Source of the DNA: an uncultured Acidobacteriota bacterium
GTDB lineage: Bacteria > Acidobacteriota > Vicinamibacteria > Vicinamibacterales > 2-12-FULL-66-21
Direction of reading: 5' to 3'
NCBI GenBank assembly: GCA_963750475.1
Contig: CAVVQQ010000003.1
Span: forward strand, 64,958-128,957
Length of the DNA stretch: 64,000 nucleotides
Shown: in pieces, positions 28,926-56,045 of the stretch
Layout of the letters: the number at the start of each line of letters is the position of its first letter
Numbering within the stretch: position 1 is the first letter of the stretch
Notes under the pieces: model-generated
What the model was told of the DNA's origin: nothing
What the model saw: only the letters and a program-made list of their open reading frames with translations
Database searches by the model: none
Program-made: the position numbers and the translations under genes

Positions 28926-29462
28926 ATGTCGCTCCTGGACTCCGACCGCACGACGATACAGGCCATTCCGATACCGCTCGAGCGCGACGTCTTTCTTCGC
29001 ACGATGTTGCGGCACCTGGCGGGCACGCTCCAGGAGGTTGTCGGTCTCGAGGAAGCGGCGGGATTCGTCAGCGTCGTCGGCCAGAAAATCGGCGACGAAA
29101 TCAATGCCGCCTACACGTCAGCGCTCGCCGTTGAGCGGCTGTCGCGGGAGCAGGTCGCGGAAGTGCTCGTCGACCTCAAGCGGCGCATCCAGGGGGACTT
29201 CTTCGTCATCGAAGCAGATGACGAGAAGATCGTTCTCGGCAACCGCGCCTGCCCGTTCGCCGAGAAGGTCGTCGGCCGGCCGGCACTCTGCATGATGACG
29301 TCGAACGTGTTCGGCAGCATCGCCGCCGAGAACCTCGGCTACGCGAAAGTGGCTCTGGAGCAGACCATCGCACGAGGCGATCGCGGCTGCCGGGTCGTCG
29401 TCTATCTGAAACCGTCCGAGACGGCGCAGCAGGCGAACGGCCGGGAATACTTCAAGGGCTGA
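28926..29462 (+). CDS. Small MOD1/V4R-like (methanogen output domain 1-type) protein
   Basis: This is a 178-aa intact ORF with GGAG upstream. It contains ...[36 protein letters not shown]...[11 protein letters not shown]. It lies 15 nt upstream of a histidine kinase. The family assignment is from memory. Confidence 0.55.
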
Positions 29463-29477
29463 CGAGTCCCCCCATCA

Positions 29478-31487
29478 GTGGCACCGACGTTTGCAACGCT
29501 AGCCGACCTCCTGCCGGAACCGATGGCGCTCGTCTCGACATCCGGGATCCTTCGCGCTGTCAATCCGGCGTTTGCCGCACTCGTCGGCGCCGACAGGACC
29601 CTGCTCGGCGGCCGGTCGCTGCTCGAGGTCGGCTGGTCGGCCGATGACTGGCCGGACTACCTGAGGCGCTGCGCGAGGACACGTTCGATGCTGCTCGGCG
29701 CCGCCACCTGTCATCGCCGGGACGGCGCCGAAATTCATTGCCGGCTTGAAGGGGCGCGATACGAGGCTCCCACCGCCAACACCGATGCCGTCGTCATGGT
29801 TCGCTTCTTCCCGCGGGAGTCGTCCTCTTCCTCGCGATTCATCACCCTCACCCAGAAGATCGACGAGCTGAACGGCGAAGTCCTGCGACGCCGGCGCGCC
29901 GAAGAGGAGGCCCGCGCTCAACGTGAGCTGCTCCACGTCACCCTGTCGAGTATCGGGGATGGCGTCATCGCCACCGATCTCGCCGGCGGCGTCACCTTCA
30001 TGAACAAGGTCGCGGAACAACTGACCGGCTGGAGCGCGGCTGAAGCCGTGCGGATGCCCGTCGGCGACGTCTTCAGGATCATCAACGAGAACTCCCGCGA
30101 GCCGGTCGAAAACCCCGTCGCCAAGGTGCTCGTCTCGGGTCACACCGTCGGCCTGGCGAACCACACGCTGCTGGTGTCCCGCGACGGCAGCGAGCGCCCG
30201 ATCGACGACAGCGGTGCGCCGATCGTCGATGCCTCGGGCCGCCTCCATGGGGTGGTGCTGGCCTTTCGCGACGTCACGGAGCTGCGAGACGTGCAGCGGC
30301 AGGAGCGCGCGGCGCGAACGGCGGCGGAGGCGGCGAGCCGCGCCAAGGACGATTTCCTGGCGACGTTGTCCCACGAGTTGCGCACGCCACTGAACGCGAT
30401 TCTCGGCTGGGCCCGCATGCTGCGGCGAGGCCTTCTCGACGACTCGCGCAAACCGCACGCGCTCGACGTGATCGAACGGAATGCCGAGATGCAGGCCCGA
30501 TTGATCGAAGACCTGCTCGATGTCTCCCGCATCGTGGTCGGACAATTGCGGCTCCACGTCGAGCCGCTCAATCTGCACGGCGTCATCGAGGCGGCCATCG
30601 ACGCCATCCGCCCGGCCGCGGAGAACAAGTCGCTACAGATATCGTCGTCGGTGCGGGTGACCTCCCCTGTGTACGGCGACGCGGCGCGGCTGCAGCAGGT
30701 GCTGTGGAATCTGCTGACGAACGCCGTCAAGTTCACCCCGGCCGGCGGTACGGTCTCACTCGACGCCGCCGAAGTGGACGATACTGTCCGCATCGTCGTG
30801 GCGGATTCGGGCGAGGGCATTCCCGCCCACTTCACCCCCCGGCTGTTCGAAATGTTCACCCAGGCCGATGCGACGTTCTCGCGGTCGCAGGGCGGTTTGG
30901 GGCTGGGCCTGGCGATCGTCAGGCGTCTCGTGGAAGCGCACGGCGGCCACGTCGCGGCCGCGAGCCGCGGGCCCGATCAGGGAGCGACCTTCACCGTGAC
31001 CTTGCCAGCCGGCCGAGGAGCTCCTGCCGAAGCGCTTCCGGCACCGGTCGGCGACGCCGCCGGCTGCCGGGGCTGCCAGGTCGTGGTGGTCGAGGATGAC
31101 CCGGATTCGGCCGAGCTCACGAAGACCCTGTTGGAGGGAGCTGGCGCCAACGTGGTCGTGTGCACGCGCGCCCGGGAAGCGCTCGCCGTGGTCGAAGGCG
31201 GCGACTTCGAGGTGCTCGTGGCCGATATCGGGCTGCCGCGTGAAGACGGCGTCTGGCTCATTCAGCAGGTTCGCAGCCTGCCGCGCGAGAGTCAGCGGAC
31301 TCTCCCTGCCGTCGCCCTGACGGCCTTCGCGAGCCCTCGGGACCGGCAGAACGCATTGGCCGCGGGCTACGACGAGCACGTGCCGAAGCCTCTCGAACTC
31401 GACACGCTCCTTCGCGCCGTCGCCCGAGTGCGAAAAAGACCGTTCGCCGAGCCCATCTCGGAAACTGGTCCTGCCCCTGGTCCGTGA
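29478..31487 (+). CDS. PAS-domain hybrid sensor histidine kinase (HisKA-HATPase-REC)
   Basis: PAS-like regions include SIGDGVIATDLAGGVTFMN. The H-box is FLATLSHELRTPLNAILGW. The N and G boxes are NLLTNAVKFTP and DSGEGI...GGLGLGLAIV. The receiver reads VVVVEDDPDSA...VLVADIGLPREDG...ALTAFA...KP. Confidence 0.9.
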   Translation: MAPTFATLADLLPEPMALVSTSGILRAVNPAFAALVGADRTLLGGRSLLEVGWSADDWPDYLRRCARTRSMLLGAATCHRRDGAEIHCRLEGARYEAPTANTDAVVMVRFFPRESSSSSRFITLTQKIDELNGEVLRRRRAEEEARAQRELLHVTLSSIGDGVIATDLAGGVTFMNKVAEQLTGWSAAEAVRMPVGDVFRIINENSREPVENPVAKVLVSGHTVGLANHTLLVSRDGSERPIDDSGAPIVDASGRLHGVVLAFRDVTELRDVQRQERAARTAAEAASRAKDDFLATLSHELRTPLNAILGWARMLRRGLLDDSRKPHALDVIERNAEMQARLIEDLLDVSRIVVGQLRLHVEPLNLHGVIEAAIDAIRPAAENKSLQISSSVRVTSPVYGDAARLQQVLWNLLTNAVKFTPAGGTVSLDAAEVDDTVRIVVADSGEGIPAHFTPRLFEMFTQADATFSRSQGGLGLGLAIVRRLVEAHGGHVAAASRGPDQGATFTVTLPAGRGAPAEALPAPVGDAAGCRGCQVVVVEDDPDSAELTKTLLEGAGANVVVCTRAREALAVVEGGDFEVLVADIGLPREDGVWLIQQVRSLPRESQRTLPAVALTAFASPRDRQNALAAGYDEHVPKPLELDTLLRAVARVRKRPFAEPISETGPAPGP

Positions 31488-31490
31488 CGC

Positions 31491-32993
31491 TCAGCGCTTG
31501 ATTGGCGTGTCGTCGGCCTTCAGGTCTCCGAGCACGTACTGCATCCCGGCGAGGATGTGCTCGAGTATCGGCCGCACGGCGTAGATCCGCTCGCTGTGGC
31601 CGAGCGCCTCGTAGAACACGCGCCCCTGTCCTTCGCGGCGAATCCAGCTCAGTCCGAAGTCGTGATCGGGGCGCGGATGCTCTTCGAGCGCCCGGTCCGC
31701 GGGGCTCATCTTCGCGTAGTCGATGCTCGTCAGCACGCGGACGTTGTCCCGCGACCACGACTGGACGCCCATCGTGTAGATCTCGTCGCGGATGTCGAAG
31801 GCTCCGCTCTTGAACATCGCGGTCAGCGGGCTCGCCGGATCGTCGATCTTCACCGTGATCTTCTGCGGGTCGAGCCAGTGGAACTTGAAGTAGCCGCCGA
31901 TCATCCGGTTGAAGTCGGGCCACGTGCCTGTCTGGGTGTCCGGCCCCTGCGCGACCGCCGGCGCCGCGGCCCCAGCCGGCTGGGGAATCATCAGCGCGAA
32001 CAGCGCGAAATCAGCCTGCGTGAGCCGGCCGGTGCGGGCGGTGTCGAGCGCCTGGAACCATGCGTCGCTGATCGCGTCGAGCTCGGCGCGATCGAGCCGC
32101 TGGTCGTGGTTGCGATCGCCCTGGGTCATCATCACCGGGGCGATCGAGGCGCCGGCGGAGAACGAGCCCAGGAGGGCCGCGATACCGCCGCCCGCCGCCG
32201 GCGGCGCGCTGTCCTGGTGATACGAATCGCTGGCCGCGTGGATGCCGGCCAGTCCCTTGCCGCCGCGCACGAACTCGAGCAGCGCCTGGCGGCGCGCCGC
32301 CGTGGCGGCGGCGTCGTTCGGGTCGTCCAGGAACGCGCCGGTGGTGCTGGCCAGAAACACCGCGTCGTACTGTTTGAGATTGGCGGCGTTGATGTCGGCC
32401 GCATCGAACGAAATCGTCGTCGACCAGGCGCCGGTCTTGGCGCCGAGCGCCTCGATCGTTTTCGCCGCGAGCGGAATGGAGGAGTGCACGAAGCCGGCGG
32501 CTTTGGCCAGGACCAGGACCTTGCGCGGGTGCAGCGGACGGGCGGGAGCGCGGTCGGGCAGCGCTGCGCGCATGGCCTCGACCGTCGCCGGCTGCGGCGT
32601 CTGCGGCTGGCCGCCCCGCCCGCCCATGTTGAACGCGGCGGCGAGGCCGGAAGCCGGCATCGCGGCGGAGAGCGCGGTGGTGAGCTGTTCCTGCGTGACC
32701 GAGCCGGTCGCGGCCGCATCGGCGGCGGTGAACCACCGGCCGGCGGCGGCCTTGAGCTCGCCGCGCGAGAGGACCCCGTCCTTGTCGGCATCAGCCGCCA
32801 GGAAGACGAGCGTCGACGACAGCAGTCCGTTGAGGCTCGCGCTGCTGGCGAGCGCCGGGGGCGCGGTGCGCGCTCCGCCCGGAGCACCCGCCGGCGCCGG
32901 TGTCGCGTTCCGCTCCTGGGAGACGGCAACCGCCGCCGTGGCCGCGAACATCGCGGCAGCGCCGCCGCAGAGAAACCAGCGAGTGAGGGTCAT
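31491..32993 (-). CDS. Secreted ThuA-domain protein carrying EF-hand-like calcium-binding motifs
   Basis: The likely start is ATG 32993 (MTLTRWFLCGGAAAMFAATAAVA). The ThuA-like core includes KVLVLAKAAGFVHSSIP, YDAVFLASTTG, GKGLAGIHAASDSY and GRVFYEALGHSE. The EF-hand loops are DADKDGVLSRGEL and DRNHDQRLDRAEL. Confidence 0.75.
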   Translation of the reverse strand: MTLTRWFLCGGAAAMFAATAAVAVSQERNATPAPAGAPGGARTAPPALASSASLNGLLSSTLVFLAADADKDGVLSRGELKAAAGRWFTAADAAATGSVTQEQLTTALSAAMPASGLAAAFNMGGRGGQPQTPQPATVEAMRAALPDRAPARPLHPRKVLVLAKAAGFVHSSIPLAAKTIEALGAKTGAWSTTISFDAADINAANLKQYDAVFLASTTGAFLDDPNDAAATAARRQALLEFVRGGKGLAGIHAASDSYHQDSAPPAAGGGIAALLGSFSAGASIAPVMMTQGDRNHDQRLDRAELDAISDAWFQALDTARTGRLTQADFALFALMIPQPAGAAAPAVAQGPDTQTGTWPDFNRMIGGYFKFHWLDPQKITVKIDDPASPLTAMFKSGAFDIRDEIYTMGVQSWSRDNVRVLTSIDYAKMSPADRALEEHPRPDHDFGLSWIRREGQGRVFYEALGHSERIYAVRPILEHILAGMQYVLGDLKADDTPIKR

Positions 32994-33071
32994 GGTTCTT
33001 TTCCAGTCGGAGAAGACTTCAGACGTCCTCACCGTCGCCAGCAGCAACCGCCGCGCCGGCTTCACTGCCGC

Positions 33072-33953
33072 TCAGGACATCCGCTCGGCCTGACCGAGCC
33101 CCTGGCCGAACCCGGCGCCCGGCTCGCCGGCCATCATCCCCGGATCCGGGACCACGTCCGTGTAGTGCGCGGACGCGCACAGCCATCGATCGCCAGCGCG
33201 ATGCACGACGAACGAGGCGAGCGTCGTTCGTGGACCGGATGATCCGGCGCCCTTCGGATCGTCTCCGGACAGCGTCATCCGCGCATGGACGACGGCCACC
33301 TCGGGCGACAGCAGTCTGACTTTGGTCTCGCTGGCCGCCATGGTCGACGTCGCGCCGGCCTGCCCGAAGCGGGCGGCATGGGCGTTCCGGATCGACTCCC
33401 GGTCGTGCCAGCACAGTCCCGTGCCGTTCACGAACTCGGCATTCTCCTCGAACAGCGCCGCGAGCGTCGCGGCGTTGCGATCGTTCCACGCCTTCGCGAG
33501 CAGCGCCGGGACGTCTTCCGGCGTGGTGTGCGGGGTGGCCGGCAGGTCCTCCCACGCCCATCGGCCGTAGAACGCCACGAACTGGGCGCCGTGCTCGTGC
33601 AGGATATCGGCGGCGATGATCCGCGTCGGGCGGCGCCTGGTCAGCACCGTGATCACGAAGCGGCCGGCGCGGAGATCCTCGGCGTGATGCGTCAGGTGCT
33701 TGAATTCGTCGAGCTCGAACTTCCGGATCAGCGTCCGTTGGAACTGCGCCAGGAAGCCATGGTCGGCGCCGGTCAGGTCGAGCCGCCGGAGGTCCTCCTC
33801 CCCGTGCAGGATATCGATGTGCTCCTGCTCGAATCCCGCCCGGAGCAGCGCGTCGACCGCGGCGCGTGCCTTCTCGGCATCGCCAACGGTGCCGACGACG
33901 CGATTGGTGGTGACGAAATCCCGTCGGTCGGTGCTCGCTGCTTTCATGGCCAT
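33072..33953 (-). CDS. Two-domain protein: an N-terminal general-stress-like domain plus a C-terminal SgcJ/EcaC (SnoaL-like, NTF2 fold) domain
   Basis: This is a 293-aa intact ORF. The C-terminal half reads VPALLAKAWNDRNAATLAALFEENAEFVNGTGLCWHDRESIRNAH...VVHARMTLSG...FVVHRAGDRWLCASAHYT, typical of the SgcJ/EcaC family. Confidence 0.6.
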   Translation of the reverse strand: MAMKAASTDRRDFVTTNRVVGTVGDAEKARAAVDALLRAGFEQEHIDILHGEEDLRRLDLTGADHGFLAQFQRTLIRKFELDEFKHLTHHAEDLRAGRFVITVLTRRRPTRIIAADILHEHGAQFVAFYGRWAWEDLPATPHTTPEDVPALLAKAWNDRNAATLAALFEENAEFVNGTGLCWHDRESIRNAHAARFGQAGATSTMAASETKVRLLSPEVAVVHARMTLSGDDPKGAGSSGPRTTLASFVVHRAGDRWLCASAHYTDVVPDPGMMAGEPGAGFGQGLGQAERMS

Positions 33954-34111: not shown

Positions 34112-34443
34112 GCGCCGCAACCCGAAGAGTCTTCGTTCGTCCCCCTGCGCCGAAAGTCTGGAGAGGCGAGGATGTGGCGTGACCGTTCCATCGCGGACTC
34201 GCGTTCCGGGCAGCTGTTCGCCAGCGCCCCGGAGCCCTCGCCATTGGGCTTCTGTCTGTCCAATCGACGTGGCTACCGGTTCGCGCCGCCTCCTGTCGCG
34301 GCGAAGCCATCCCACCGCTGCCCGTCACCAGGACCGAATCCCGGATCATCCCGACGGGCAGATCGTCGACGACGTCTCGATCACGCCTGGACTGGTGCAC
34401 GGGTCCCGGTGGCCGATCCTTCCCGCGGACAGGAACCGACGCG

Positions 34444-36337
34444 ATGAACCGCAAACCGCTGATCCTTCTTGGCGTCGCCGCCGCACTGCTCACGTTCGCC
34501 GGCACCGCGCTGACCGCCGCGCGGCCGCCGGCCGGCGACTATCTCGAGAGCGATCAAACGGCGGCCGCCGCCCCGGCGCCGGCCGCGGCCGCGCCGGCCC
34601 AGCCCGCCGCCGCCACGCCGGCCCAGCCCGCCGCCGCCACGCCGGCCGCGGACAAGCCGTATGTCGAGGCCGAGTACCCGGCGCTTCCCCGTCGTCGGCA
34701 GCCGCGTCGCCATCTGGATGGTCGCGCAGCTCCATCTGCTGTTCGCGGCGTTCGTTCTCGCGGTGCCGATCTTCGCCTTCATCGTCGAGGCGATCGGCTA
34801 CAAGACCGGCGACATGCGCTACGACCGGCTCGCCCATGAGTTCACGAAGCTGCTGTCGGTCTCCTTCTCGCTGACCGCGACCTTCGGGGCGGCGCTGACG
34901 TTCATGCTGATCATCCTGTACCCGAAGTTCACCAACTACATGATGAGCGTGTTCTCGCCGACCTTCCTGCCCTACGTCCTGCTCTTCTTCGCCGAGGCGT
35001 TCTTCCTCTACACCTACTACTACGGCTGGGGGAAGTTCCATCCGCTGGTCCATCTCGGACTCGGGCTCGGCCTCAACATCGTCGGCACCAGCATCATGCT
35101 GATCGCCAACGCCTGGCTGACCTTCATGATGTCGCCGCGCGGCGTGTCGAGCACCGGGCGCCGTCCTCTCGGTGCGGGAGGCGGTCTACAACTACACCTG
35201 GATGCCGATCAACGTGCACCGCATCATCGCCAACGTCGCCTTCGGGGGATCGATCGCGGCCGCGTACGCGGCGTTCAAGTTCCTCCAGGCGACCACCGAC
35301 GAGGAGCGCGCGCACTACGACTGGATGGGCTACATCGGCAACTTCGTCGCGATCAGCGCCTTCCTGCCGCTGCCGTTTGCCGGCTACTGGCTCGCCAAGG
35401 AGATCTACGCCTACTCGCAGACGCTCGGCCTGCACGATGATGGGCGGGGCGTTCTCGTGGCTGTTCATCATCCAGGCCGTGCTGATTGGCAATCTGTTCC
35501 TCGCCGCCAACTACTATCTCTGGCTCGGCATGGGGCGCGTCGACGGGGTCGCAGCCGCTGCAGCGCTTCATCAAGTATCTGCTCGCCGGGATCACGCTCT
35601 GCTTCATGGTCTGGGCGACGCCGCGATCGATCATCGCGACCGTGTCCGAGCTCCGGGCGATGGGCGGGTCGTCGCACCCGGTCCTCGGCTACCTCGGCGT
35701 CATGTCGGCGAAGAACACCGCCGTGAACATCCTGATCCTCACGACCTTCATGAGCTTTCTCCTCTATCGCCGGACCGGCAAGGTCGCCGCCGTGGCGTGG
35801 GCGAAGAAGGGGCACGCGGCGCAGCTCGCGATCTTCGCCGGCGTCGCCGTCTTCGTCGTCTTTCTCGGCGTCTACGGCTACTTCGTCGAGGCGACGGTCC
35901 GCATCAAGCTGTCGGTGCCGCAGGTCCTCTCGGTCCTGTTCGCGATGGTGGCGATCACCGCCATCGACCTGTTCCTGTTCCGCGGCGCGCGCAAGACCGG
36001 CGAAGTGCGCTGGGGCCGGATTCCGGCGATCTCGCAGTACGTGCTGATCTTCATCGCCGTCACCTTCACCTGGCTGATGGGGCTGATGGGCTACGTCCGC
36101 TCCGGGCTGCGCCAGCACTGGCACGTCTACGGCGTGATCCGCGACAAGTCCGCCGACGCCTTCACGCCGACGCTCGGCTTCGCGACGAAAGTCGTCTCGG
36201 TGACCGTGCTGCTGTTCTTCCTGCTGATCGCCGTCGTGTTCTGGATCGCGAGCCTGCACGACCGGCCCGACTTCGACCGGGGACAGACCGCTCGTGACGC
36301 CGCTCGTCCCTGGACCGCGGCGCAGCGAGCATCATGA
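34444..36337 (+). pseudogene. Cytochrome bd-family subunit I (CydA)-like membrane protein with about 13-14 hydrophobic helices, carrying four frame changes as sequenced
   Basis: Fragments from ORFs 34444.., 34661.., 35172.., 35377.. and 35486..36337 join into one protein. The first join reads ...KPYVEAEYPA|FPVVGSRVAIWMVAQLHLLFAAFVLAVPIF. This is followed by ...ANAWLTFMMSPRG..|GAVLSVREAVYNYTWMPINVHRIIANVAFGG. Next comes ...YAYSQTLGL|TMMGGAFSWLFIIQAVLIGNLF...LWLGMGR|..SQPLQRFIKYLLAGITL... The shifts lie at about 34685, 35155, 35433 and 35545. The helix-1 His motif (QLHLLF) resembles CydA. The stop overlaps the next start (ATGA at 36334). Confidence 0.75.
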
Positions 36338-36879
36338 GGATCCCGCACATCGTCCGCATCGCCGCGCTCGTCTTCGCGACGACCGGGTTCTATGCCTACG
36401 TCGGCCAGATGGTGCCGCAGAAGGAAGTCCAGCCTCCGCAGGAGACCGGCCATGGGCGGCGACCTGAGCCACCGCCGAGCTGGCCAAGATCGGCCGCGAG
36501 ATCATGGAGGGCAAAGGCTTCTGCCTGACCTGCCACACCATCGGCAAGACCGGCGCGCTCCGGTTTCCCGACCTCGCCGGGGTCGATGTCCGCGCCAAGA
36601 CCCGCGTCCCGGGGCTGAGCGATGTCGAGTACTTCGCCCAGTCGATGTACGAACCGACCGCCTACATCGTGCGAAGGCTTTCCCCCGGCGATGCCGCCCA
36701 TCAACAAGCCGCCGATTGGTCTGACCGACGAGGAGATCCTCTCCGTGATCGCGTACCTGCAGACGCTTGGCGGCACCGCGACCGTCACCCTGCAGACGAA
36801 ACATCACTACAACAGCGGACCCGCCGCGGGCGGGACGCCGCCGCCGGCCGCCGCGCCGCCGAAGGGGACGCAGCCATGA
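36334..36879 (+). pseudogene. Membrane-anchored monohaem c-type cytochrome, with two or more frame changes as sequenced
   Basis: The N-terminal anchor is MRIPHIVRIAALVFATTGFYAYVGQMVP. It is followed by ...TAELAKIGREIMEGKGFCLTCHTIGKTGALRFPDL...SDVEYFAQSMYEPTAYIV|EGFPPAMPPINKPPIGLTDEEILSVIAYLQTLGG. The haem motif is CLTCH, and MPP provides a distal Met. The shifts lie at about 36440-36470 and about 36672. The stop overlaps the next start (ATGA at 36876). Confidence 0.7.
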
Positions 36880-37695
36880 AGATCGCCGTCCTCGTCGCCA
36901 TCCTCGCAGTCTTCGCGCTGCTGCGGTTCCGGCGCGCGAACCTGCTGCTGTGGGCCGGCGCCTGGTGGATCGGGATCTACGTGCTGCTCCGCTTCGGCTT
37001 CACCGCGCCGATTCCCTCCTCCGTCGTCACGCTCTACATGGGCATCATTTCGATTGCCCTGCTCGCCTACGTCTCCTCCAGCGAGGTACGCCGCGACGAG
37101 GTCTCGGGTCCGCTGGTCAGGTTCATGACCGACAAGCGCTACACGGTCCTCCTCGGCGTCGCCATCGTCGCCATCCCGGCGCTCGCCGCCGCCAATGTCT
37201 ACGTCCAGATGAGCGTCCCGCTGCAGCCGCCGCTGTTCTCGCGCACGGTCCATCCCGCGTCGCCGTCCGAGATCACGGTCCACGACAAGAAGGTCGAGCT
37301 CGACGCCGGCGAGAACCCGTTCCGCCGCCTCGAGACGTCGAACCCGGCCGAGTTCCGCACCCACGTCGAGAACGGACGCCGCGTCTTCTACCGGAACTGC
37401 GTGTTCTGCCACGGCGACAATCTCTCCGGCAACGGCATGTTCGTCCACGGACTCGATCCGATCCCGACCAACTTCACCGACAAAGGGACGATCGCGATGC
37501 TGCGCGAGACCTACCTGTTCTGGCGGATTTCCAAGGGGGGACCCGGGCTGCCGGAGGAGGGCGGGCCGTGGGCTTCGGCGATGCCGGCCTGGGAGAAGTT
37601 CCTGAAGGAAGACGAGATCTGGGATGTCGTCCTCTTTCTCTACGACTATACCGGCCAGCGGCCCCGCGCGAAGGAGGAGGGGGCGAAGCCGATGA
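36876..37695 (+). CDS. Polytopic membrane-anchored monohaem c-type cytochrome (3' boundary unresolved)
   Basis: The start is ATG 36876. About four hydrophobic helices begin MKIAVLVAILAVFALL.... The soluble domain carries CVFCHGDNLSGNG...MPAWEKFLKEDEIWDVVLFLYDY. No stop exists in this frame before 38078. A TGA in the adjacent frame at 37693 overlaps a well-placed ATG 37692 (GGAGGAGGGGG upstream). I therefore place the end near 37695, assuming one more indel. Confidence 0.6.
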
Positions 37696-39414
37696 CGATC
37701 CCCTGGACGCCTGGTGGTCATGGTGGCGGCGCTCTGGGCCGCGCCGGGAGGATCGATGCGCGTGGCGGCGCAGGACGTCGGCACCGAGGCCCAGCGCGAG
37801 TCGGGCCGGAAGCTGTATCTCAAATCCTGCTCGCAGTGCCACGGCGAAAAAGGGGACGGCGAAGGATACGCCGCCCCGCATCTGCGTCCGCGGCCGCGGA
37901 ATTTCACGACCGGCAAGTTCAAGATCCGGACCACGGCAAACGGCGCGCTGCCGACGCATCAGGACCTGGTCAACATCATCAGACGGGGAATGCCGTACAC
38001 CTCGATGCCAGCCTGGCCGAGCCTTGCCGATCAGGAAGTGTCGGATCTCGCGTACTTCATCACCACTTTCTCACCTGACTTCGCCAAGCCCGAGAACGCT
38101 CCCAAGCCGGTGCCGCTTCCCGGCGCGCCGAAGGCGACGACGGAGTCTGTAGCGCTCGGAAAGAAGCTCTACGAGGAGAGCGGCTGCGTGAAGTGCCACG
38201 GCGCGCTCGGCCGCGGTGACGGGCCGTCGGCGCCGACCCTGATGGACGACTGGGGGCACCCGATCCGCGCCGCCGATCTGGCGCAGAGCTGGACCCTGCG
38301 GGGCGGATCTTCCCGCGAAGACATTTTCCGGACGATGAGCACGGGGCTGAACGGCACGCCGATGCCGTCGTTTCTCGAAGCGCTGACGCCGGAGCAGCGC
38401 TGGGCGATCACCGATTTCATCGTCTCGCTCTCGGGCGGCGACGGCCCTGGCTACGCCAATCTGGTCATCGCCAGGCACGTGAAGACGCCGATCGATCTCG
38501 GCAAAGGCGCCGCGAGCTTTGCTGACGCGCCGGTCGCACGGTTTCCGGTCGTCGGCCAGATCATGGAGCCGGGACGATCGTTCCATCCGCCGGCGACGAG
38601 CGTCGCCGTCCAGGCGGTCTACGACGCCGACTCGATCGCCCTGCTGGTGCGCTGGCACGACATGAGCGCGGAAAAGTCCGGGAAGAACGGGCCGTCGCTG
38701 CCGGTGCCGGCAGAGGAAGAGGAGGAGCCGGCGGCGGCCGCGGCGGCGGGCGAGGGGAGCAGTGCGGGCGGCTTCGGCGACGCGGAGGTCGCGGCGACGC
38801 CGGCCGGACAGGCGCCGGCGCCCGCCGCGGACCCCTTCGCCGAGGCCGTCCGCGCCAGCTGCGCCGCCATCCGAGTTCTCCGACGCTGTCGCGATCCAGG
38901 TGCCTTCGCAGGCCCTCGACCGGTGCGCGCAAGCCGTACTTCCTCTTCGGCGACGGCGAGAACCCGGTCGATCTCTGGTTCTTCGATCTGGCCGGCGCGG
39001 CGCCGCTGCAGTTCACCGGGCGGGGCAGCGGGGCCGTCGACAGCCGCCGCCGCGACCGATGTCACCGGAACCGCGAGCTACGACCAGGGGGAATGGTCGG
39101 TCATTTTCAAGCGGCCCCTGCGCGCCGGCGCGCGGCGCTCCGTTCTCGCCCGGGAGAGTTCGTGCCGATCGCCTTCTCGGTGTGGGACGGCTTCTCGCGC
39201 GAGCGCGGCAACAGGCGCGGCCTCACGACCTGGTACTCCCTCTATGTCGAGCCGGCAGTGGTGCCCTCGCCCGATCGGCCCGATGGTGAGGACGGCGGTG
39301 ATCATTCTGGTCATCGAGCTGGCGGTGATCGGCTGGGTGCGCAGGCGCTACGGATCGCGCGACCAAGGAAAGCTCGGCGCGGCGCCGAGCCACCCGGCAG
39401 CGACCGGCGCGTGA
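37692..39414 (+). pseudogene. Dihaem c-type cytochrome fused to an EB_dh (ethylbenzene-dehydrogenase gamma / DOMON-like haem-binding) domain with a C-terminal membrane anchor, carrying about seven frame changes as sequenced
   Basis: The haem motifs are CSQCH and CVKCH (ORF 37714..). The EB_dh-like segment is spread over all three frames. It reads ...SVAVQAVYDADSIALLVRWHD... / PSEFSDAVAIQVPSQAL / KPYFLFGDGENPVDLWFFDLAG..LQFTGRGSGAV / TGTASYDQGEWSVIFKRPLRAG / APFSPG / EFVPIAFSVWDGFSRERGNRRGLTTWYSLYVEPAVVPSP / IGPMVRTAVIILVIELAVIGWV. The shifts lie at about 37705, 38860, 38928, 39040, 39130, 39155 and 39260. Confidence 0.7.
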
Positions 39415-39510
39415 GCGCGCCGGGAGCGAGCGACGTGAACCGCCGCCGCCCCAGGGCGGCCGGGGCCGGCCAGGGCGGCGGGACGAAGTCCGCCGATGAA
39501 AAGAGGACCC

Positions 39511-41620
39511 ATGTACAAGAGCATCTACGTTCCCGTCGATAACTCAGACCACTCCAACCGCGCCGTCGCCTGCGCCGTCGGGCTGGGCAAGGCGTATTCG
39601 GCGAAGCTGGTCGGCTGCCATGTCTACGCCGCCAAGCTGCACGACTACCGCTTCAGGCAGATGGAGTACACGCTGCCCGAGGAGTACATCGACGAGGTCG
39701 AGCTCGAGCGGCAGCGGAAGATCCACGACAGCCTGATCACGATGGGCCTCAAGCTGATCTCCGACAGCTATCTCGACGGCATGTCGCGGCTGTGCGGAGA
39801 GTCGGGCCTCGAGTTCGAGCCGCGGATGATGGACGGGAAACATCACATCGAGATCCTCAAGGACCTCGCCGGCTCGGCGCACGATCTGGTGGTGCTCGGC
39901 GCGCTGGGAATCGGCCGCGCCCGCGACAGCGTGATCGGCTCGGTCTGCGAACGGGTCGCCCGCGAGGCCGATCGCGATGTCTGGGTCGTCAAGCACGTCC
40001 CGGAGCCGGGCGAGGCGGACCGGGACACCATCCTGGTCGGCGTCGACGGCAGCCCGCAGTCGTTCGGCGCGCTGATGACGGCCTCGATCTGGCCCGCACC
40101 TTCGGCAAGAAGGTCGAAGCGATCGCCGTCTACGATCCCTACCTGCATTACTCGGTCTTCAACGGCATCGTCGGCGTCCTCACCGAGCAGGCGGCGAAGG
40201 TCTTCCGCTTCGAGGAGCAGAACCAGCTCCACGAGGAGATCATCGACACCGGGCTGGCGCAGATCTACCAGTCGCACCTCGAAGTGGGCGAGCGGATGGC
40301 GAGCGAGGCGGGCGTCGAGATCAAGAAGACGCTTCTCGACGGCAAGCCTTTCCAGAAAATTCTCGACCACGCGCGCAAGACCAACCCGTGGCTGATCGTC
40401 GTCGGGCGGATCGGCGTGCACAGCCCGAAGGACGAGACCGGGCTGGGGAGCAACACGGAGAACATTCTCCGCGCCGCGCCCTGCGATGTCCTCCTGTCGA
40501 CGCGCCTCGAGGTGCCGCGCCTCGACGTGCGCGCCGAGGAGACGGTGCGGTGGACGCCCGAAGCCGAGGAGCGGATGACGCACGTGCCCGAGCAGGTCAA
40601 GGGGATCGCCCGCACCGGCGTCCTCCGGCTGGCGCTCGAGAAGGGGCATTCGGTGGTCACGAGCGCGGTGATTGACGAAGCGATGGATCGGTTCATGCCG
40701 AAGAGCGCTTCGGCGGCGACCAAGGCGCTGGCCGAGGCGGTCGCGCTCGAGCGGGCGAAGGCGGGCCCGGTCTCGATGTGCCGGGCCTGCGGCGTCACTG
40801 CCACGCAGAGCGGCGCCGGTGCGGTGCATCGTCTGCGGCGCCGACCGACTTCGAAGTGATCTCGCGCGAGATGATCGAGAAGATCGCCGAGGTCGAGGGC
40901 GGGCTCCAGGAGGAGACGACCTACGACGGGCGCAAGCTGCGGTGGTCGGAGGACGCCCGGAAGGGCCTGTGGACGATGAAGAACGCCTATCAGCGGCGCC
41001 GCACCAAGGCGCGCGTCGAGAAGCGCGCGCGCATGAAGAAGCTCGACGCGATCACGCTCGATTTCGCCCGCGAGGTGATCGAGGAGGAGACGGGCACGCC
41101 GCTCGACATCGTGGCTCAGGGGGCCTTGACCTCGTCGGCCGCCACATCGGCGTCGCCCGCCGGGACGCCCGCGTCGGGCTCCGCGCCGGCGCCAGCGGCC
41201 TCTGACGGCGTGAAGCTGGTGGCCCGCGACGAGCGGAAGAACCCGCTGATCTCGATCTTCGACTGGACCGACGAGGCGACGCAGCGGATCTTCCGCGTCC
41301 CGGCCGGCTTCATGCGCAGCCAGACGCAGGAGCGGATCGAGGCGCTCGCGCACGAACGCGCCGCGGCTGGCGGCACTGGCGAAGCCGGAGTGGTGATCGA
41401 TCTGGCGCTCGTCGAGGACGGGATCGAGATCGGCAAACGGATGATGGCCGAGATGATCGCGAACTACCCGTCAGCGGGCCAGGGGCACGAGAAGGCGGCG
41501 CCCGCTGCAGCGGGTCACTCCTCCTCGGCGTCGACCGCGCCCGCACAGGAAGCGCCGGCCGTGAACGGGAGCGGCTACCTCAACGAAGTGAGCGCGCTCT
41601 CGGCGCGGCGCGTCGAGTGA
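39511..41620 (+). pseudogene. Multidomain protein: tandem universal-stress (Usp) domains, a CxxC...CxxC zinc-ribbon and three PCP_red-like domains, with three frame changes as sequenced
   Basis: The start is probably ATG 39511 (MYKSIYVPVDNSDHS). Usp1 is ...LVVLGALGIGR...SVCERVAREADRDVWVV. Usp2 is ILVGVDGSPQSFGALMT|GLDLARTFGKKVEAIAVYDP...LIVVGRIGVHS...GSNTENILRAAPCDVLL. The PCP_red-like units are VRWTPEAEERMTHVPEQVKGIARTGVLRLALEKGH, LRWSEDARKGLWTMKNAYQRRRTKARVEKRARMK and FDWTDEATQRIFRVPAGFMRSQTQERIEALAHER. The zinc ribbon is MCRACG...RCIVCGA. The shifts lie at about 40080, 40815 and 40838. Confidence 0.7.
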
Positions 41621-41742
41621 CTTCATCAGCGCGTAGCAAGCGTCCGTGGAGCGAACCACGTCGGCAGGGTCAGGCTGGCGCGCCAGCGGCGCGCCGCGCC
41701 GGAGCGGAGCGGGGCGCAGGGGCCCCCGCGAGCGACGGCGAG

Positions 41743-41768
41743 GGGGGGCCGGCGGGGCGAAGCCCCCC
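41743..41768 (+). terminator. GC-rich hairpin followed by an A/T-rich tract (weak terminator candidate)
   Basis: The stem GGGGGGC pairs with GCCCCCC across a 12-nt loop (cggcggggcgaa), and the hairpin is followed by GGTAAATAAAT. It sits between the Usp/PCP_red gene and the GNAT gene. There is no canonical U-tract. Confidence 0.25.
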
Positions 41769-41777
41769 GGTAAATAA

Positions 41778-42654
41778 ATGTCCGCCTACCGGTTCTGTCG
41801 CTCGGACGACATCGGCCTGCTCGTCGATGCGCTGAATCGCTGCTGGTCGCCGTCTTTTCCCGACGAGCCGGCGATGACGCCGGCCGCGTTCAAGCGATCG
41901 ATCCGCGACCTTCAGGTCTGGTGCAGCAGCTGCATGGTCGCCTTCGCGGGCTCCGATCCGATCGGCGTCCTGATCGGCGCCAAGCGGCCGTCCGGAACCC
42001 TCGTCCACAAGATCGCCGTTCATCCGGAGCATCAGCGCCAGGGCCATGCTCGCCACATGCTCGATTCGCTCGGCGTCGAAGCTCGCGATTCTCGGCCCGC
42101 CGCGAATCAGCGCCGAAGTGCCGGAAGCCCTCGTGCCTGCCTGCGGCGGGCTGTTGCGCGCCAGCGGATTCGTCCAGGAAGCGCGCCTGACCGACTACGT
42201 ACTGCAGCATGACAATCGCGGCGATGATGAGGCCGCAGGCATTCCCGCCGGCCGGTTCGTCATCCCGGTGACCCTTGACGATCTCGCCGCCAATGGCCTC
42301 TCCGCCGAGGCTGATACCCAGGTCTGCTGGGAGCGCGCGGTCGACACCCTCATCGCGCGGAAGGAGGAGATTGCCGGGCTCGCCGTCGCCTCGGACGAGC
42401 GAATCGAGGCCTGCCTGCTGTACGTGACGCACGGGGCGGCGGCGGAGATTGTCTCGCTGCGTACCTTCATCGACGATGGCGGAGCTCGTGTGAAGCAGCT
42501 GCTCTCACGACTCGGCGCCCGGGGAATCGGCACGTTCCGCTTCCCGAAAGTGCGCCCGCCGGAAATCTCCGAGGACTGGCTCGAGACGCTCGGCTTCCGC
42601 CCCGCTGGCGGGCATCGACTTTACGCGACGACGGCGCGATCGGACCATGCGTAA
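41778..42654 (+). pseudogene. GNAT-family N-acetyltransferase (two-lobed), with one frame change as sequenced
   Basis: ORF 41778.. and ORF 42046..42654 join at ...VHKIAVHPEHQRQGHARHMLDSL|..SKLAILGPPRISAEV... (shift about 42065-42075). HQRQGHARHM fits GNAT motif A (Q/R-x-x-G-x-A/G). Confidence 0.6.
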
Positions 42655-42693
42655 GCTGGCGATTGTTCGAACGACGGCAGTCCCGGGCAGGAA

Positions 42694-43658
42694 ATGAAAA
42701 CCTACAGCGACATCGTTGGCGACGGCGGGTCCAGGGTGCTCGAGCAGGTGGCCGAGCAGCGCGCCCGCATCACGGACGGGCTCGCCGGAGTGCGCCATCT
42801 CGTTGCCGTCGGCTCCGGCAAGGGGGGCGTCGGCAAGAGCACCCTGACGCTCCATCTCGCCGGTGCCCTGCGCGCCCGGGGACTGCGCGTCGGGATCCTC
42901 GACGCCGACTTCAACGGTCCGTCGCAGGCGCGCATGGCCGGCGTCCAGGAAGGGCTGTTCGTTCCAGGCCGCGACAAGGTGGCGCTGCCGCGAACGAAGA
43001 ACGGCATCCCGGTCTTCTCGATGGGCTCGATGATCCCGGAGTCGGAGGCGCTCGAGTTCGAGAGCACGGCGCCCGGCGAGTCGCAGACCTGGCGCGCCAC
43101 CCGGGAGTTCGCGCTCCTCGGCGAAATCCTCGGGGCCTTCGAGTGGGGCGCGCTCGATCTGCTGATGTTCGATCTGCCGCCCGGGAGCCGAGCGGACCGT
43201 CCAGTACGCCGACTTTCTCGGGCCGCGGACCTCGTTCCTGCTCGTCACCATCCCCTCGGAGGTATCGCGAGGCGTGGTCGCGCGCTCGGTGGCGGCGCTG
43301 GCGAAGGGACCCAACCGGGTCCTCGGCTACGTCGAGAACATGAGCGGCTACTACTGCCGCGACTGTAACGCCGTCAAGCCGCTGTTTGCCTCGGCTGGAT
43401 CCGAGGATGCGGCAGGCGGCGCCGTCCCGCCGACCTCGCGCCAATCCCGGCTCGAGATTCCCTGCCTCGGAACCGTCCCTTTCGATCCCGAGCTGGCACG
43501 GTCACTGCGATACAGGGCTGCCGCTCGCGGACGTCCCCGACAGCCCGGTTGGCCGGGCCCTGGAGCGCGTCGCGCAGCAGCTTCTGGACAGCCTCGAATC
43601 TCCTCCGCCTCCGCTCCCGCTCCGCGCGAGCTTCGGCTCGGCAAGGAGCTCGCGATGA
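42694..43658 (+). pseudogene. Mrp/NBP35 (ApbC)-family iron-sulfur cluster carrier ATPase, with two frame changes as sequenced
   Basis: The deviant Walker A is VAVGSGKGGVGKSTLT. Further segments are ILDADFNGPS, DLLMFDLPPG|AERTVQYADFLGPRTSFLLVTIPSEVS, and the CxxC motif in ENMSGYYCRDCN. The protein continues ...GTVPFDPELAR|..CDTGLPLADVPDSPVGRALERVAQQL. The shifts lie at about 43185 and 43500. The stop overlaps the next start (ATGA at 43655). Confidence 0.85.
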
Positions 43659-44144
43659 AGTTCCTCTGTGTCCCCTGCGACAGTCCGATGAAGCTGCAGA
43701 CCGTCGAGCCCGCCCGAGGGCGGCTCGCTGTCGGTCGTCTATGCCTGTCCCGAGTGCGGCTACGAGATGGCGATGCTGACCAACGCCGTACGAGACGCAG
43801 CTCGTTCAGTCGCTCGGCGTGCGCATCGGGCCCGACATCGCCGGCGGAGCGCTGGCCGGGGCAGCGGCCGAGCCTGGCAAGTGTCCGTTCCCCGGGATGA
43901 TCTCGTCCGCGGCCCCGCAGCCCACAGGCGCCAACGGGGCGACGGAGGAAGGGCGCCCCGGGCCAGACCGACGATCCGAGCCCGGTCCGCTGGACCGACG
44001 CCGCCGAGGCCCGGCTCGCGAACATTCCCGCCTTCGTGCGGCCGATGGCGCGGACCGGCATCGAGAGGTACGCGCGCGAGAGAGGGGTCGCAGGAAGTGG
44101 ACGAGACCATCCTCGACGCGGCCCGCGACTTCTTCGGCATGTAG
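43655..44144 (+). pseudogene. Small zinc-ribbon plus PCP_red-domain protein, with four frame changes as sequenced
   Basis: The sequence reads MKFLCVPCDSPMKLQTVEP|..GGSLSVVYACPECGYEMAMLTN|..YETQLVQSLGVRIGPDIAGG...KCPFPGM...|VRWTDAAEARLANIPAFVRPMARTGIERYARERGV|.EVDETILDAARDFFGM. Successive pieces lie in frames 2, 0, 1, 2, 0 (position mod 3). All four shifts are +1, at about 43712, 43788, 43955 and 44092. Confidence 0.6.
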
Positions 44145-44207
44145 GCTGCGTTCCTGCGCGAGTCCACACGGATCTGCGCGGATTTGCACGGATTGACACC
44201 GGTCTGA

Positions 44208-45671
44208 ATGGCTGCACCGATGAACGCGACCCCGTTCGCCCGACCGTACGTCATCTCCTGGAACCTCACCTACCGCTGCAACCTTGCCTGCGAGCACTGC
44301 TATCTCGACGCCGGCGGCGCGCCACAGGTCGGCACCGAGAACTTCGCCGATCGGAGCGAGCTCGGCACCGAGGAATGCTTCAGGGTGATCGACGACATCG
44401 CCGCGTTCGCGCCCGAATGCGTGACGATCCTGACCGGCGGCGAGCCGCTCCTGCGCCGCGACATCCTCGAGATCGTCCAGCGCGCCGCGGAGCGCGGGCT
44501 CTGGGTCGTCGTCGGCACCAACGGCGTGCGCATCACGGAGAACCGTGGCGAAGCGACTGGCCGATGCCGGCGCGCGCGGCCTCTCGCTCTCTCTCGACGC
44601 GCTCGATCCCGATCGCCACGACCGGTTCAGGAACGTGCGCGGCGCCTGGCGGAACACGGTCGAGGGTGCGGAGATCCTCAACCGGACCGGGCTCCCCTTC
44701 ATCGTCCAGACGACCGCGGGCTCGCACAATCTCGGCGAGCTCGACGCCATCGCCGACTTCGCGCACGACCGCCTTGCCGCGAAGGTCTGGAACCTCTACT
44801 TCCTCGTACCGACCGGGCGCGGCCAGTTCGTCTCCGACATCACCCCGGCGCAGTACGACGACGTGCTGGCGTCGCTCTACCGGATCCAGCGGAAGTACGA
44901 CCGCCGGATGCTGGTCAACGCGAAGTGCGCACCGCACTACATCAAGACCGTACTCGAGCGCGCCCGCGGCCTGGGCGAGGGGCCGGAGGGTAGTCCCGCG
45001 GAGCGGGACCCCCGAGCGAGCGGCGGTGGCACCCGCGAGCACCGGAGGATGCCGGGCAGGCTCCCGGCCCGCCCTCGATCAGGACCTACTCCGGAGGGGC
45101 CGGTGGATGCCCGGCGGGAACGCACTACATGGGGATACGGCCGAACGGCGATGTCACCCCCTGCCCGTATCTGCCGGTCTTCGCGGGTACCCTTCGCAGC
45201 GCCAGTCTGCGGACCTGTGGACATCATCGGCGCTGTTTGCCGACATCCGCCGCCGCACCGCGCTCGGCGGCCGCTGCGGGGCGTGCGAGATGAACGGCCA
45301 CTGCGGCGGCTGCCGCGCCCGGGCGTACGGGATGACCGGCGATGTGATGGCCGAGGATCCACTCTGCACCCACATCCCCGGCACGTTCGCCGGCTCGCCG
45401 CTGCTGGCAGTCCGCGGCGCGTCCCCGGCGCCGGTCGGGCGGGACGAAGCGCCGGCCAGTGCGGGAGATCCAGTACGGTCCCGAATCGCCTCGGGCGATT
45501 GCGTGGGACGATGCCGCGGCGGCGCGCATGAAGAGGATCCCGGTGTTCGTCAGGGGCATGGTCACCACGGCCGTAGAGGAGTCCTGCCGCAAGAGCGGCC
45601 TCGACCGCGTCACCGTCGAGGAGCTCGACCGCATCCGCGCGCGGATGCCGACCCCGAAGATTTTCGGGTGA
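44208..45671 (+). pseudogene. Radical SAM / SPASM-domain enzyme (AhbD/NirJ-like tetrapyrrole-modifying type) with a C-terminal PCP_red domain, carrying five or more frame changes as sequenced
   Basis: The radical SAM cluster motif is NLTYRCNLACEHCY. Further segments are ILTGGEPLLRRDI, VVVGTNGVRITEN|.AKRLADAGARGLSLSLDALDPDRHDRFRN and ...VWNLYFLVPTGRG...NAKCAPHY. The SPASM-like part is GCPAGTHYMGIRPNGDVTPCPYLP...LWTSSALFADIRRR...GRCGACEMNGHCGGCRARAY...DPLC. The final domain is IAWDDAAAARMKRIPVFVRGMVTTAVEESCRKSGLDRVTVEELD (ORF 45459..45671). The shifts lie at about 44540, 44960-45100, 45198 and 45455. Confidence 0.8.
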
Positions 45672-45688
45672 GGCTGGATCTGAAGGGG

Positions 45689-47240
45689 ATGACTGCAATC
45701 CTGCAAAGCGCCCGAAGCGCGACAGCCCTGACGCTGATCGTGCTGGTGTGCACGGCGACAGTTGCCAGGTCGCACGGTCCGGCGGATTCCGATGCCTCGG
45801 GCGCGTCAGACAGCGCCACCGTGCCACTCGCCCCGGGCGGGGCGATCGACTCACCCGGGCCGGGCAGCGTCGTTGGCCCGTATTTCACGGTCACCGGGTG
45901 GGCGATTGAGGCTGCCGCGTCGACCGGGACAGGCGTCGACGGCGTCTATCTTTGGGCGTACCCGGCGTCCGGCGGATCAGGCATACCTCTCGGGTGGGCC
46001 GACTACGGCCGCACCCGACCCGATGTTGCCGACCAGTCCGGCCTCCGGTTCAGCAATTCGGGCTATTCGCTCGCCACCGGCATCGTCAATCCCTCGGGCT
46101 CGTACACCATCGTTGCCTACGTTCACGACACAGCGGCCGGGGGCTTCCATCAGCAGCAGGTTGTGACGGTCACGACCCAGCAGGACGCCCGGGGCGCCAT
46201 CGACCCGCCGGCGGGCGGTTTCACCGTCCCGCCGGCGTTCGCGCTGACTGGATGGGCGATCGACACCGGCGGTTTCGGGTCAGGCGTCGACGGCGTGTAC
46301 TTGTGGGCGTTCCCCTTCTCCGGCGGGGCGCCTTTTCCCGTCGACACAGCGGCCACGTATGGGCTGGCGCGGCCGGATGTGGCGTCGCAGGTACGGCAGC
46401 CGGTTCAGGAATTCGGGCTACAGCATCAACGTGGCGAGCCTGGCGCCCGGCAGGTACGTTCTCGTTCCGTTCGCCCATCCGACCGTCGGCGGTTTCGTTC
46501 AGACGCAAAGTGTCGTGGTGGAAGTGCAACTCCGTCCGCACGGGGCGATCGATTCACCCGGCCCGGACAGCGTGATCGGCCCGTGGTTCACGGTTACCGG
46601 ATGGGCGATCGAGTCCGGCGCGTCATCGGGCACGGGCGTGGACGGCGTTTACATCTGGGCGTATCCGTCCGGGGGTGGAGCCGGCATACCACTCGGGTGG
46701 GCCGACTACGGAAAGACACGACAGGATGTGGCCGGCCGGTACGGCAGCCGCTTTCTCAACTCGGGCTATTCGCTCGCCACCGGCATCGTCAATTCCTCTG
46801 GCTCGTATACCATCGTTGCGTACGTTCACGACGCACTCGCCGGAGGCTTCCATCAACAGCAGGCCGTGACGGTCAGGAAACAGCAGGATCCCCGGGGAGC
46901 GATCGATCCGCCGGCCGGCGGTTTTGCGGTCTCACCGTCTTTCACGCTTACTGGATGGGCGATCGACGCCAACAACCAACTCCCGGGTCCGGGCGTCGAC
47001 GGGGTCTATCTGTGGGCGTTTCCAGTTTCGGGCGAGCCACCTTTCGCGGTCAATTCATCCGCCGCGTATGGACTGGCCCGTTCGGACGTGGAGTCGCAGT
47101 ATGGCCCGTTCTTCAGGAATTCCGGCTACAGCGTCACTGTCTGGAACCTGCCCGCGGGCGTCTACGTCCTCGTTCCGTTCGTCCATGAGAGTCCGGGCGG
47201 CTTCTTCCGGACCCAGAGCGCCGTCGTCACGGTGCGATAG
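45689..47240 (+). pseudogene. Secreted protein made of four tandem ~115-aa beta-sandwich-like domains (A-B-A'-B'), with one frame change as sequenced
   Basis: The start is ATG 45689, followed by a signal peptide (MTAILQSARSATALTLIVLVCTATVA). The repeating pattern is GAIDxPxxGxxVxxxFTxTGWAI...GVDGVYLWAxP...YGxxRxDVxxxxGxxFxNSGYS...GxYxxVxxxH. The frame of ORF 44036.. joins ORF 46359..47240 near 46390 (...RPDVASQ|YGSRFRNSGYS). Confidence 0.7.
45838..47240 (+). repeat. Coding tandem duplication, two units of about 705 bp
   Basis: Unit 1 starts near 45838 (GGGGCGATCGACTCACCCGGGCCGGGCAGCGTC...). Unit 2 starts near 46543 (GGGGCGATCGATTCACCCGGCCCGGACAGCGTG...). By eye the units show long runs of identity, for example GGGTGGGCCGACTACGG and TCGGGCTATTCGCTCGCCACCGGCATCGTCAAT, interspersed with substitutions. 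Confidence 0.8.
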
Positions 47241-53562: not shown

Positions 53563-53567
53563 GCCGC

Positions 53568-56014: not shown

Positions 56015-56045
56015 GCAGCTGTTCTCCCGACGTCTGGTTCGAGGG

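Follow-up and report, generated by a model that had tools for sequence, protein, structure and literature searches.

Canonical CydA, the haem-binding subunit I of cytochrome bd, has nine membrane helices and a periplasmic Q-loop, with Lys252 and Glu257, between helices 6 and 7. Its residues His19, Glu107 and His126 serve the O2 site and the proton path of that site, its helix 1 must start outside the membrane, and it shares one fold with its partner CydB. The subfamily named OR-N2 consists of 14-helix CydA homologues without a quinol site, for which the electron donor is unknown and is possibly cytochrome c (Murali, Gennis & Hemp 2021, doi 10.1101/2021.01.16.426971). The OR-N2 gene is often the sole cydA-like gene in its operon, and lies beside several cytochromes c and a homologue of EbdC (doi 10.1101/2021.01.16.426971). 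The same type of protein was described in Nitrospina, Nitrospira and Kuenenia, with 14 helices, an N-terminal part that aligned with CydA, conserved haem b ligands, membrane helices instead of the Q-loop and no quinol-binding residues; a role like that of alternative complex III (ACIII) was suggested (Lucker et al. 2013, PMC3578206). In Nitrospira, bd-like proteins are highly transcribed and have been proposed as terminal oxidase; in N. moscoviensis, a cluster of bd-like_3, alt_NxrC_2 and a cytochrome c ranked within the top 40 genes by transcription (Mundinger et al. 2019, PMC6606698). A 2025 survey still called the oxygen affinity of OR-N oxidases unknown, and a literature search found no structural or biochemical study of bd-like oxidases. 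Here we describe a gene of this kind in a 64,000-nucleotide (nt) stretch of DNA from an uncultured Acidobacteriota bacterium (GenBank assembly GCA_963750475.1, contig CAVVQQ010000003.1, positions 64,958–128,957), hereafter the window. The bd-like gene occupies positions 34444–36337 of the plus strand. With a probability of roughly 0.9, its product is the membrane subunit that binds haem in a cytochrome bd-like complex of OR-N2 type, the host being a Vicinamibacteria-like acidobacterium. The family has already been described and named, and is very common; the locus adds a new member and no new kind.

Reconstruction of the bd-like gene

An initial annotation, made from the sequence, had placed a bd-family subunit I at this position. 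A homologue is indeed encoded there, not as one uninterrupted open reading frame (ORF), however, but as pieces divided by four frameshifts. Neither the ORF list nor the three-frame translation contained a single ORF across 34444–36337. The coding signal steps through frames 0, 1, 2, 0 and 1, giving four shifts of +1 each, and intact homologues matched the window as five tblastn pieces in frames 1, 2, 3, 1 and 2. Nucleotide alignment to a syntenic locus, L001, identified four 1-nt insertions on the plus strand, each an extra C, at 34677, 35159, 35435 and 35550. The closest relatives each showed exactly four gaps when aligned to the window gene. Deletion of the four C in silico produced one ORF of 629 amino acids, with 89% identity to an intact homologue, P0001.

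A homologue search of 5.8 billion proteins returned 6983 matches, the best of which were 80–91% identical, were 590–645 amino acids long and covered 97–100% of the query. Since intact homologues of this length span 97–100% of the corrected protein, the stitching of frames did not fuse two genes, a possibility that had been raised for an adjacent CydA and CydB. The bd-like sequence was one gene in 84 of 84 related loci. Residue numbers below are those of the corrected 629-residue protein, and equivalent positions are those of Escherichia coli CydA.

Homology to CydA

Helices 1–5 of the bd-like protein are homologous to CydA. In the first stitched version, residues 88–317 matched profile positions 2–240 of 418 of the Pfam family PF01654 (E = 4e-21), with 75.5 bits where the gathering score is 26.2. 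Comparison with PDB sequences by phmmer returned CydA chains only, with E down to 1.5e-12 and with the ligand histidines aligned. By hhalign, the family profile aligned residues 86–284 with residues 8–212 of E. coli CydA at a probability of 94.5%, and homology to CydA ended at residue 284. For the part that follows helix 5, profile comparison gave probabilities below 3% against each of three targets: the C-terminal half of E. coli CydA, CydB, and the N-terminal half of the family itself. There is thus no sequence evidence of a CydB-like fusion or of an internal duplication. Only one motif aligned in the C-terminal half, LRQHW in this protein and GRQPW in CydA.

Structural comparison used AlphaFold2 models of the intact homologue P0001, which is 89% identical to the corrected window protein. 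A first model, from 72 close homologues (82–95% identical to P0001), reached a predicted local distance difference test (pLDDT) score of 47 and a predicted template modelling (pTM) score of 0.34, too poor for use. A second alignment, A4, was seeded with a Nitrospirota relative and added Nitrospirota homologues 33–46% identical to P0001. The second model reached a pLDDT of 82.9 and a pTM of 0.84. When it was compared with the PDB using Foldseek, the ten best matches were all CydA chains (E 6.5e-9 to 3.9e-6, TM-score per target 0.44–0.65).

Haem-ligand and proton-channel positions

The initial annotation had observed that the histidine in the QLHLLF context was retained. This residue, H97 (34733–34735), aligned with the axial haem ligand His19 in both phmmer and hhalign alignments. 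Also kept were E184 (34994–34996), equivalent to Glu107; H203 (35051–35053), equivalent to His126; and H258 (35217–35219), equivalent to the haem b558 ligand His186. In the same alignments Y177 (34973–34975) replaced Glu99, and Y191 and Y193 replaced Phe114 and Phe116, as in OR-N2. Further downstream, the segment S552...R555-Q-H-W558-H559 (36101–36124) contains the LRQHW motif, with Ser552 at the position of Glu445 and W558 six residues after S552. M419 (35702–35704), together with N423, is the probable equivalent of Met393, as it is invariant in A4 and its spacing fits the M430/N434 of the OR-N2 reference. All of these codons lie on the plus strand. Across A4, which holds sequences from Acidobacteriota and Nitrospirota, the invariant residues were H97, Y177, E184, Y191, H203, H258, H410, M419, K422, N423, S552, R555 and H559, of which H410 and H559 are situated in periplasmic loops. 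From the sequence pattern, the invariant M419 is probably placed as second ligand of a low-spin b558-like haem. With the equivalents of His19 and His186 retained, the haem ligands are not all lost; Met393 has a probable counterpart, and among the four positions singled out for comparison in the initial annotation only that of Glu99 is replaced, by tyrosine.

Probable assignment to OR-N2

The published OR-N2 row consists of H99, Y183, E190, Y197, Y199, H213, H269, M430/N434, S563 and W569 (Supplementary Table 6, doi 10.1101/2021.01.16.426971). In the corrected protein, H97, Y177, E184, Y191, Y193, H203, H258, M419/N423, S552 and W558 track this row at stepwise offsets of 2, 6, 10 and 11. Two other subfamilies were tried and rejected. 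The OR-N1 row, with Gly at the Glu107 position and other spacing, did not fit. OR-C proteins are fused to cytochrome c, with about 8 helices and a CxxCH motif in subunit I; the 629-residue protein has no CxxCH motif, a single Cys (C385) and 13+1 helices.

The protein agrees with the published subfamily in residue pattern, in helix number (14) and in the genes downstream, and on these grounds it very probably belongs to OR-N2. As in OR-N2, there is no Q-loop or quinol site and no second cydA-like gene nearby, the window holding one CydA-like locus only, and the gene is accompanied by cytochromes c and an EbdC homologue. His19, Glu107, His126 and His186 are kept, Glu99 is changed to Tyr and Glu445 to Ser, and Met/Asn stands at the probable Met393 position. 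The difference lies in the host, here an acidobacterium and not a member of Nitrospirota, from which the retrieved homologues were 33–46% identical to P0001. The initial annotation had suggested a 'cyt bd-like' protein of the Nitrospira type, lacking Q-loop and CydB and probably using a non-quinol donor, and the OR-N2 residue pattern, the helices and the gene neighbourhood support this view.

Relative to the canonical CydA structures of E. coli, Geobacillus and Mycobacterium, the protein shares helices 1–5, the best fold match, the His19, Glu107, His126 and His186 positions and the GRQPW-like motif. It differs from them in having 13+1 helices in place of nine, no Q-loop, no CydB or CydX, replacements of Glu99 and Glu445, and cytochromes c as partners.

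N-terminal anchor, linker and membrane helices

Hydropathy and the AlphaFold2 model gave an N-terminal hydrophobic anchor followed by 13 membrane helices. The initially reported figure of about 14 helices therefore holds as a total; the 13–14 that had been counted after the anchor come to 13, with the anchor as the fourteenth. The N-terminal element is a signal-anchor or signal peptide (MNRKPLILLGVAAALLTFAGTALTAA, 34444–34521, plus strand), with a hydropathy of 2.13 and a helix in the model. It leads into the long Ala/Pro-rich linker that had been noted earlier, a flexible low-complexity segment predicted to be periplasmic (34522–34676, plus strand), which was modelled as disordered, with pLDDT below 50 and ends in a conserved KPYxEAEYR motif. 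Among 120 close homologues, each of the 109 that could be analysed had an N-terminal hydrophobic stretch and then a linker, of 6–61 amino acids (median 44). Homologue linkers contained 28% Ala and 12% Pro, and ended in KPYxEAEYR. In the window, the linker carries a perfect 24-nt tandem duplication (34594–34641), in which ccggcccagcccgccgccgccacg occurs twice and encodes PAQPAAAT twice.

Positive charges in alternate loops, as read from the sequence, fit an arrangement with both termini cytoplasmic and the linker periplasmic. A signal-anchor would put the linker outside, so that helix 1 enters from the periplasm, as it does in CydA. No periplasmic loop longer than about 30 residues was found in the AlphaFold2 model, and hence no Q-loop, in agreement with the initial annotation. 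Additional membrane helices occupy the place of the Q-loop and of the quinol residues, which are likewise gone.

The downstream module

The next genes had been described as cytochromes c, and three were found on the plus strand after the bd-like gene, with one, one and two CxxCH motifs. The first, cytc1 (36334–36879), encodes a monohaem cytochrome c anchored in the membrane. Its start codon and the stop codon of the bd-like gene overlap (ATGA), and it contains three 1-nt insertions, near 36457, 36468 and 36671. The second, cytc2 (36876–37695), encodes a cytochrome c with one CxxCH and a hydrophobic N-terminal region of about four membrane helices by eye. Its own frame has no stop until 38078, probably because one extra G in a GGGGG run (37679–37683) masks a TGA at 37693–37695. 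Such a TGA would overlap the start codon (ATG) of the third gene, the arrangement seen in L001. The third gene (37692–39414), with about seven 1-nt insertions, encodes a protein in which a dihaem cytochrome c is joined to an EbdC/NxrC-like haem b domain (PF09459, EB_dh) and which is anchored in the membrane by its C-terminus.

The order bd-like, cytc1, cytc2, cytc3/EB_dh was kept in every related locus with enough downstream sequence, in several phyla; in this module, linkage of the bd-like gene to three periplasm-facing haem proteins is obligate. The four-gene module was present in at least 593 species genomes, mostly of Acidobacteriota, where the hosts were Vicinamibacterales, Thermoanaerobaculia and Polarisedimenticolia. 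Other hosts were Rhodothermales and other Bacteroidota, Fibrobacteria, Calditrichia, Myxococcota and Spirochaetaceae. Unlike the acidobacterial module, the Nitrospirota homologues closest to P0146 (L084 and L085) were solitary genes, with no cytochromes c beside them. The two Nitrospirota gene contexts retrieved, P0373 and P0294, hold solitary genes and are thus uninformative on the cytochrome c cluster.

Gene fusions were also found among the homologues. A cytochrome c domain occupied the linker position in P0063 and P0155, and in P0121, P0124 and P0137 the bd-like protein continued at its C-terminus into cytc1. These fusions support both a periplasmic linker and physical contact with cytochrome c, and suggest that the neighbouring cytochromes c bind the bd-like membrane subunit.

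The cluster resembles those of Nitrospira, Nitrospina and Kuenenia (PMC3578206, PMC6606698), and TO_1 of Ca. Manganitrophus (PMC9040806), in the type of protein, the EbdC/NxrC-like partner of about 60 kDa and the c-type cytochromes. It also poses the same question, that of an oxidase versus ACIII-like reverse electron flow. In contrast to the Nitrospira-type clusters, it belongs to a heterotrophic soil group, it carries the EbdC-like domain on one polypeptide with a dihaem cytochrome c, and in related loci it is often extended by an ActAB/Qrc-like module. The annotated parts of the window showed no genes for nitrite oxidoreductase, although no search was aimed at them.

Proposed mechanism and a complex III-like alternative

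We tentatively interpret the complex as a cytochrome c-dependent, CydB-less bd-type oxidase, a reading drawn from sequence comparison to which we would give nearly, and at best, even odds. Entry of electrons would be on the periplasmic side, by way of the c haems and of the b haem of EbdC type. From there they would reach the His258/Met419 haem and next the H97-ligated haem, at which O2 would be reduced, with protons arriving by the conserved E184/H203 path.

Several observations weigh against this interpretation. OR-N proteins have been neither purified nor assayed, and the case for O2 reduction comes only from conserved CydA residues. Equivalence to Met393 rests on spacing in the published table, our own C-terminal profile alignment being not significant. 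Glu99 and Glu445, the latter a haem b595 ligand in E. coli, are both replaced. The same gene cluster has been reported in strictly anaerobic anammox bacteria (PMC3578206). Finally, an ActAB/QrcABC-like module without an NrfD subunit is found in relatives, and would fit a quinone-coupled, complex III-like role as well or better.

In its fullest form, this last point gives a possible, though rather unlikely, alternative: the complex would not reduce O2, and the bd-like subunit would be the quinone-interacting membrane part of an ACIII/Qrc-like complex, replacing the NrfD-type subunit (ActC/QrcD), with activity as a quinol:cytochrome c or cytochrome c:quinone oxidoreductase. Directly 5′ of the bd-like gene, 53 of 82 related loci encode a QrcA/ActA-like multihaem cytochrome, a QrcBC/ActB-like protein and a 228-residue cytochrome c. 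The second of these, QrcB+QrcC/ActB-like, has 1040 amino acids in the relatives and a variant of the twin-arginine translocation (TAT) signal. An NrfD-type gene was absent from the 53 clusters, and an aa3 oxidase operon was often just upstream, as in ACIII-caa3 clusters. In most acidobacterial relatives, then, the bd-like gene sits at the place of the NrfD-type subunit. A literature search found no publication on this acidobacterial ActAB-bd-like arrangement.

Part of this arm persists in the window as a relic of the 228-residue cytochrome c gene (34278–34433, plus strand), which was identified by tblastn with the protein of a second related locus, L002 (52% identity over residues 151–202, E = 2e-12). 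The relic encodes 52 residues, and the CxxCH part and both ends are gone. No match to ActA or ActB was found in the window, where only this cytochrome c relic is left, and the window lineage appears to have lost the ActAB/Qrc-like arm. The loss of the Glu445 haem ligand would also suit a quinone-coupled complex, as would the ACIII-like role proposed for the Nitrospina, Nitrospira and Kuenenia cluster and the conservation of that cluster in anaerobic anammox bacteria. No quinone site could be identified, however, as the Q-loop and the Lys252/Glu257 region are absent, and the bd-like protein is not NrfD-like. The equivalents of His19, Glu107 and His126 are invariant. Moreover, in the window, in L001 and in the loci of other phyla the four-gene module is retained although ActAB is absent, and the bd-like gene is under purifying selection.

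It is quite doubtful, if conceivable, that the module, comprising the bd-like protein, two anchored cytochromes c and the dihaem c/EbdC-type protein, with an ActAB/Qrc-like arm devoid of NrfD in most Acidobacteriota, represents an as yet uncharacterised type of respiratory enzyme. Such an enzyme could take either of two forms, a CydB-less bd-type oxidase fed by cytochrome c, or a complex with a CydA-like protein in place of the NrfD-type quinone subunit of ACIII/Qrc.

Origin of the frameshifts and absence of CydB

The four frameshifts in the bd-like gene are most likely errors of the sequence record, and not features of the gene. Relative to L001, the genes downstream of it contain about 17 more 1-nt insertions, mostly C or G, versus one deletion, and the COX1 gene at 54324–55932, about 18 kb downstream, is broken over at least three frames. 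Frameshift-like junctions were mapped along the window using a GC-phase hidden Markov model, which recovered the four bd-like sites within about 10 nt. About 4 junctions were called in 1–34 kb, at least 11 in 34.4–45 kb and about 13 in 52–59.3 kb, and none in 47.4–51.7 kb or 59.3–64 kb. The two dense blocks (34400–45700 and 52000–59300) coincide with respiratory gene clusters. This uneven density counts against errors in the record.

Such a distribution, concentrated in two respiratory blocks and scarce over 1–34 kb, would be compatible with a true pseudogene, the bd-like gene and its operon having been inactivated by frameshifts in the source organism. The four frameshifts of the bd-like gene, those further along the operon, and the intact state of the gene in all 84 related loci, other long-read bins included, point in the same direction. 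We nevertheless judge this improbable. Almost every event is a +1 insertion, usually of C or G, whereas in bacterial pseudogenes the established bias is towards deletion; unrelated genes at 57–59 kb are hit too. After correction, the bd-like gene has no in-frame stops, and its ratio of nonsynonymous to synonymous substitution rates (0.09–0.135 in the window lineage, versus 0.07–0.19 in intact relatives) equals that of intact relatives. Record errors are favoured because neither the surplus of amino-acid changes nor the deletions expected of a pseudogene with four indels are seen; a very recent inactivation is a remote possibility. Programmed frameshifting was rejected as well, as the one gene has four sites, not one of them conserved among the 84 relatives, in which the gene shows no frame change.

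An ordinary quinol-oxidising CydA with cydB elsewhere, or a CydA-CydB fusion, is very improbable: the PF01654 match, the routine annotation 'cytochrome bd ubiquinol oxidase subunit I' and the weak CydB chains that come next in the Foldseek list (E about 1e-2, as expected from the shared CydA/CydB fold) would fit, but the protein has 13+1 helices and not nine, no Q-loop and replacements of Glu99 and Glu445, its family profile matched CydB by hhalign at a probability of only 0.2–0.3%, and cydB is absent from the window and from within 10 kb in L001 and L002. For the window, this absence, already reported in the initial annotation, was confirmed by tblastn with E. coli CydB, which gave no match with E < 3 in the 64 kb; for L001 and L002, no Cyt_bd_oxida_II gene was called in the two Pfam-annotated gene tables.

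Other genes in the window

A set of conserved neighbours follows the module on the plus strand. It begins with a gene for tandem Usp domains and PCP_red domains (39511–41620, frameshifted), after which come a GNAT acetyltransferase (41778–42654) and an Mrp/NUBPL-type Fe-S cluster carrier ATPase (42694–43650), with one frame change each. A small PCP_red-domain protein (43655–44144) and a radical SAM/SPASM protein that resembles AhbD/NirJ and also bears a PCP_red domain (44193–45671, several frame changes) complete the set. The same accessory set (39511–45671) was found at L001:14941–20887 and is common to many relatives across phyla. The radical SAM protein scored 294 bits against the haem b synthase model, under the cut-off of 500, and recurs near the module in several phyla. 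Speculatively, this could point to tetrapyrrole tailoring, in which the radical SAM enzyme, the three PCP_red-domain proteins and the Mrp-type Fe-S carrier might make or insert a modified haem for the module.

Genes for haem-copper oxidase subunits II (51961–52741) and I (54324–55932) lie on the minus strand, with 28–61% identity across aligned pieces to the aa3 genes of L002. Their presence indicates another terminal oxidase nearby in the source organism. Upstream of the bd-like gene, the interval 28926–33953 encodes apparently intact genes for a MetOD1-domain protein, a PAS/histidine kinase/receiver hybrid sensor, a ThuA-like protein with EF-hand motifs and a DUF4440/SnoaL-like protein. The DUF4440/SnoaL-like gene is syntenic with L001.

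Implications

With four frameshifts in the record, gene callers would miss or split the bd-like gene at this locus. In nitrite oxidisers, proteins of the bd-like (OR-N) kind are regarded as the principal terminal oxidases. The module described here is very common in soil Acidobacteriota and in several other phyla, the counts being at least 593 for species genomes and in the thousands for metagenome proteins. Among these groups, cultured heterotrophs may be easier experimental systems than Nitrospira, and the ActAB/Qrc-like arm without an NrfD subunit, together with the haem-type radical SAM neighbours, provides concrete hypotheses that can be tested in the family.

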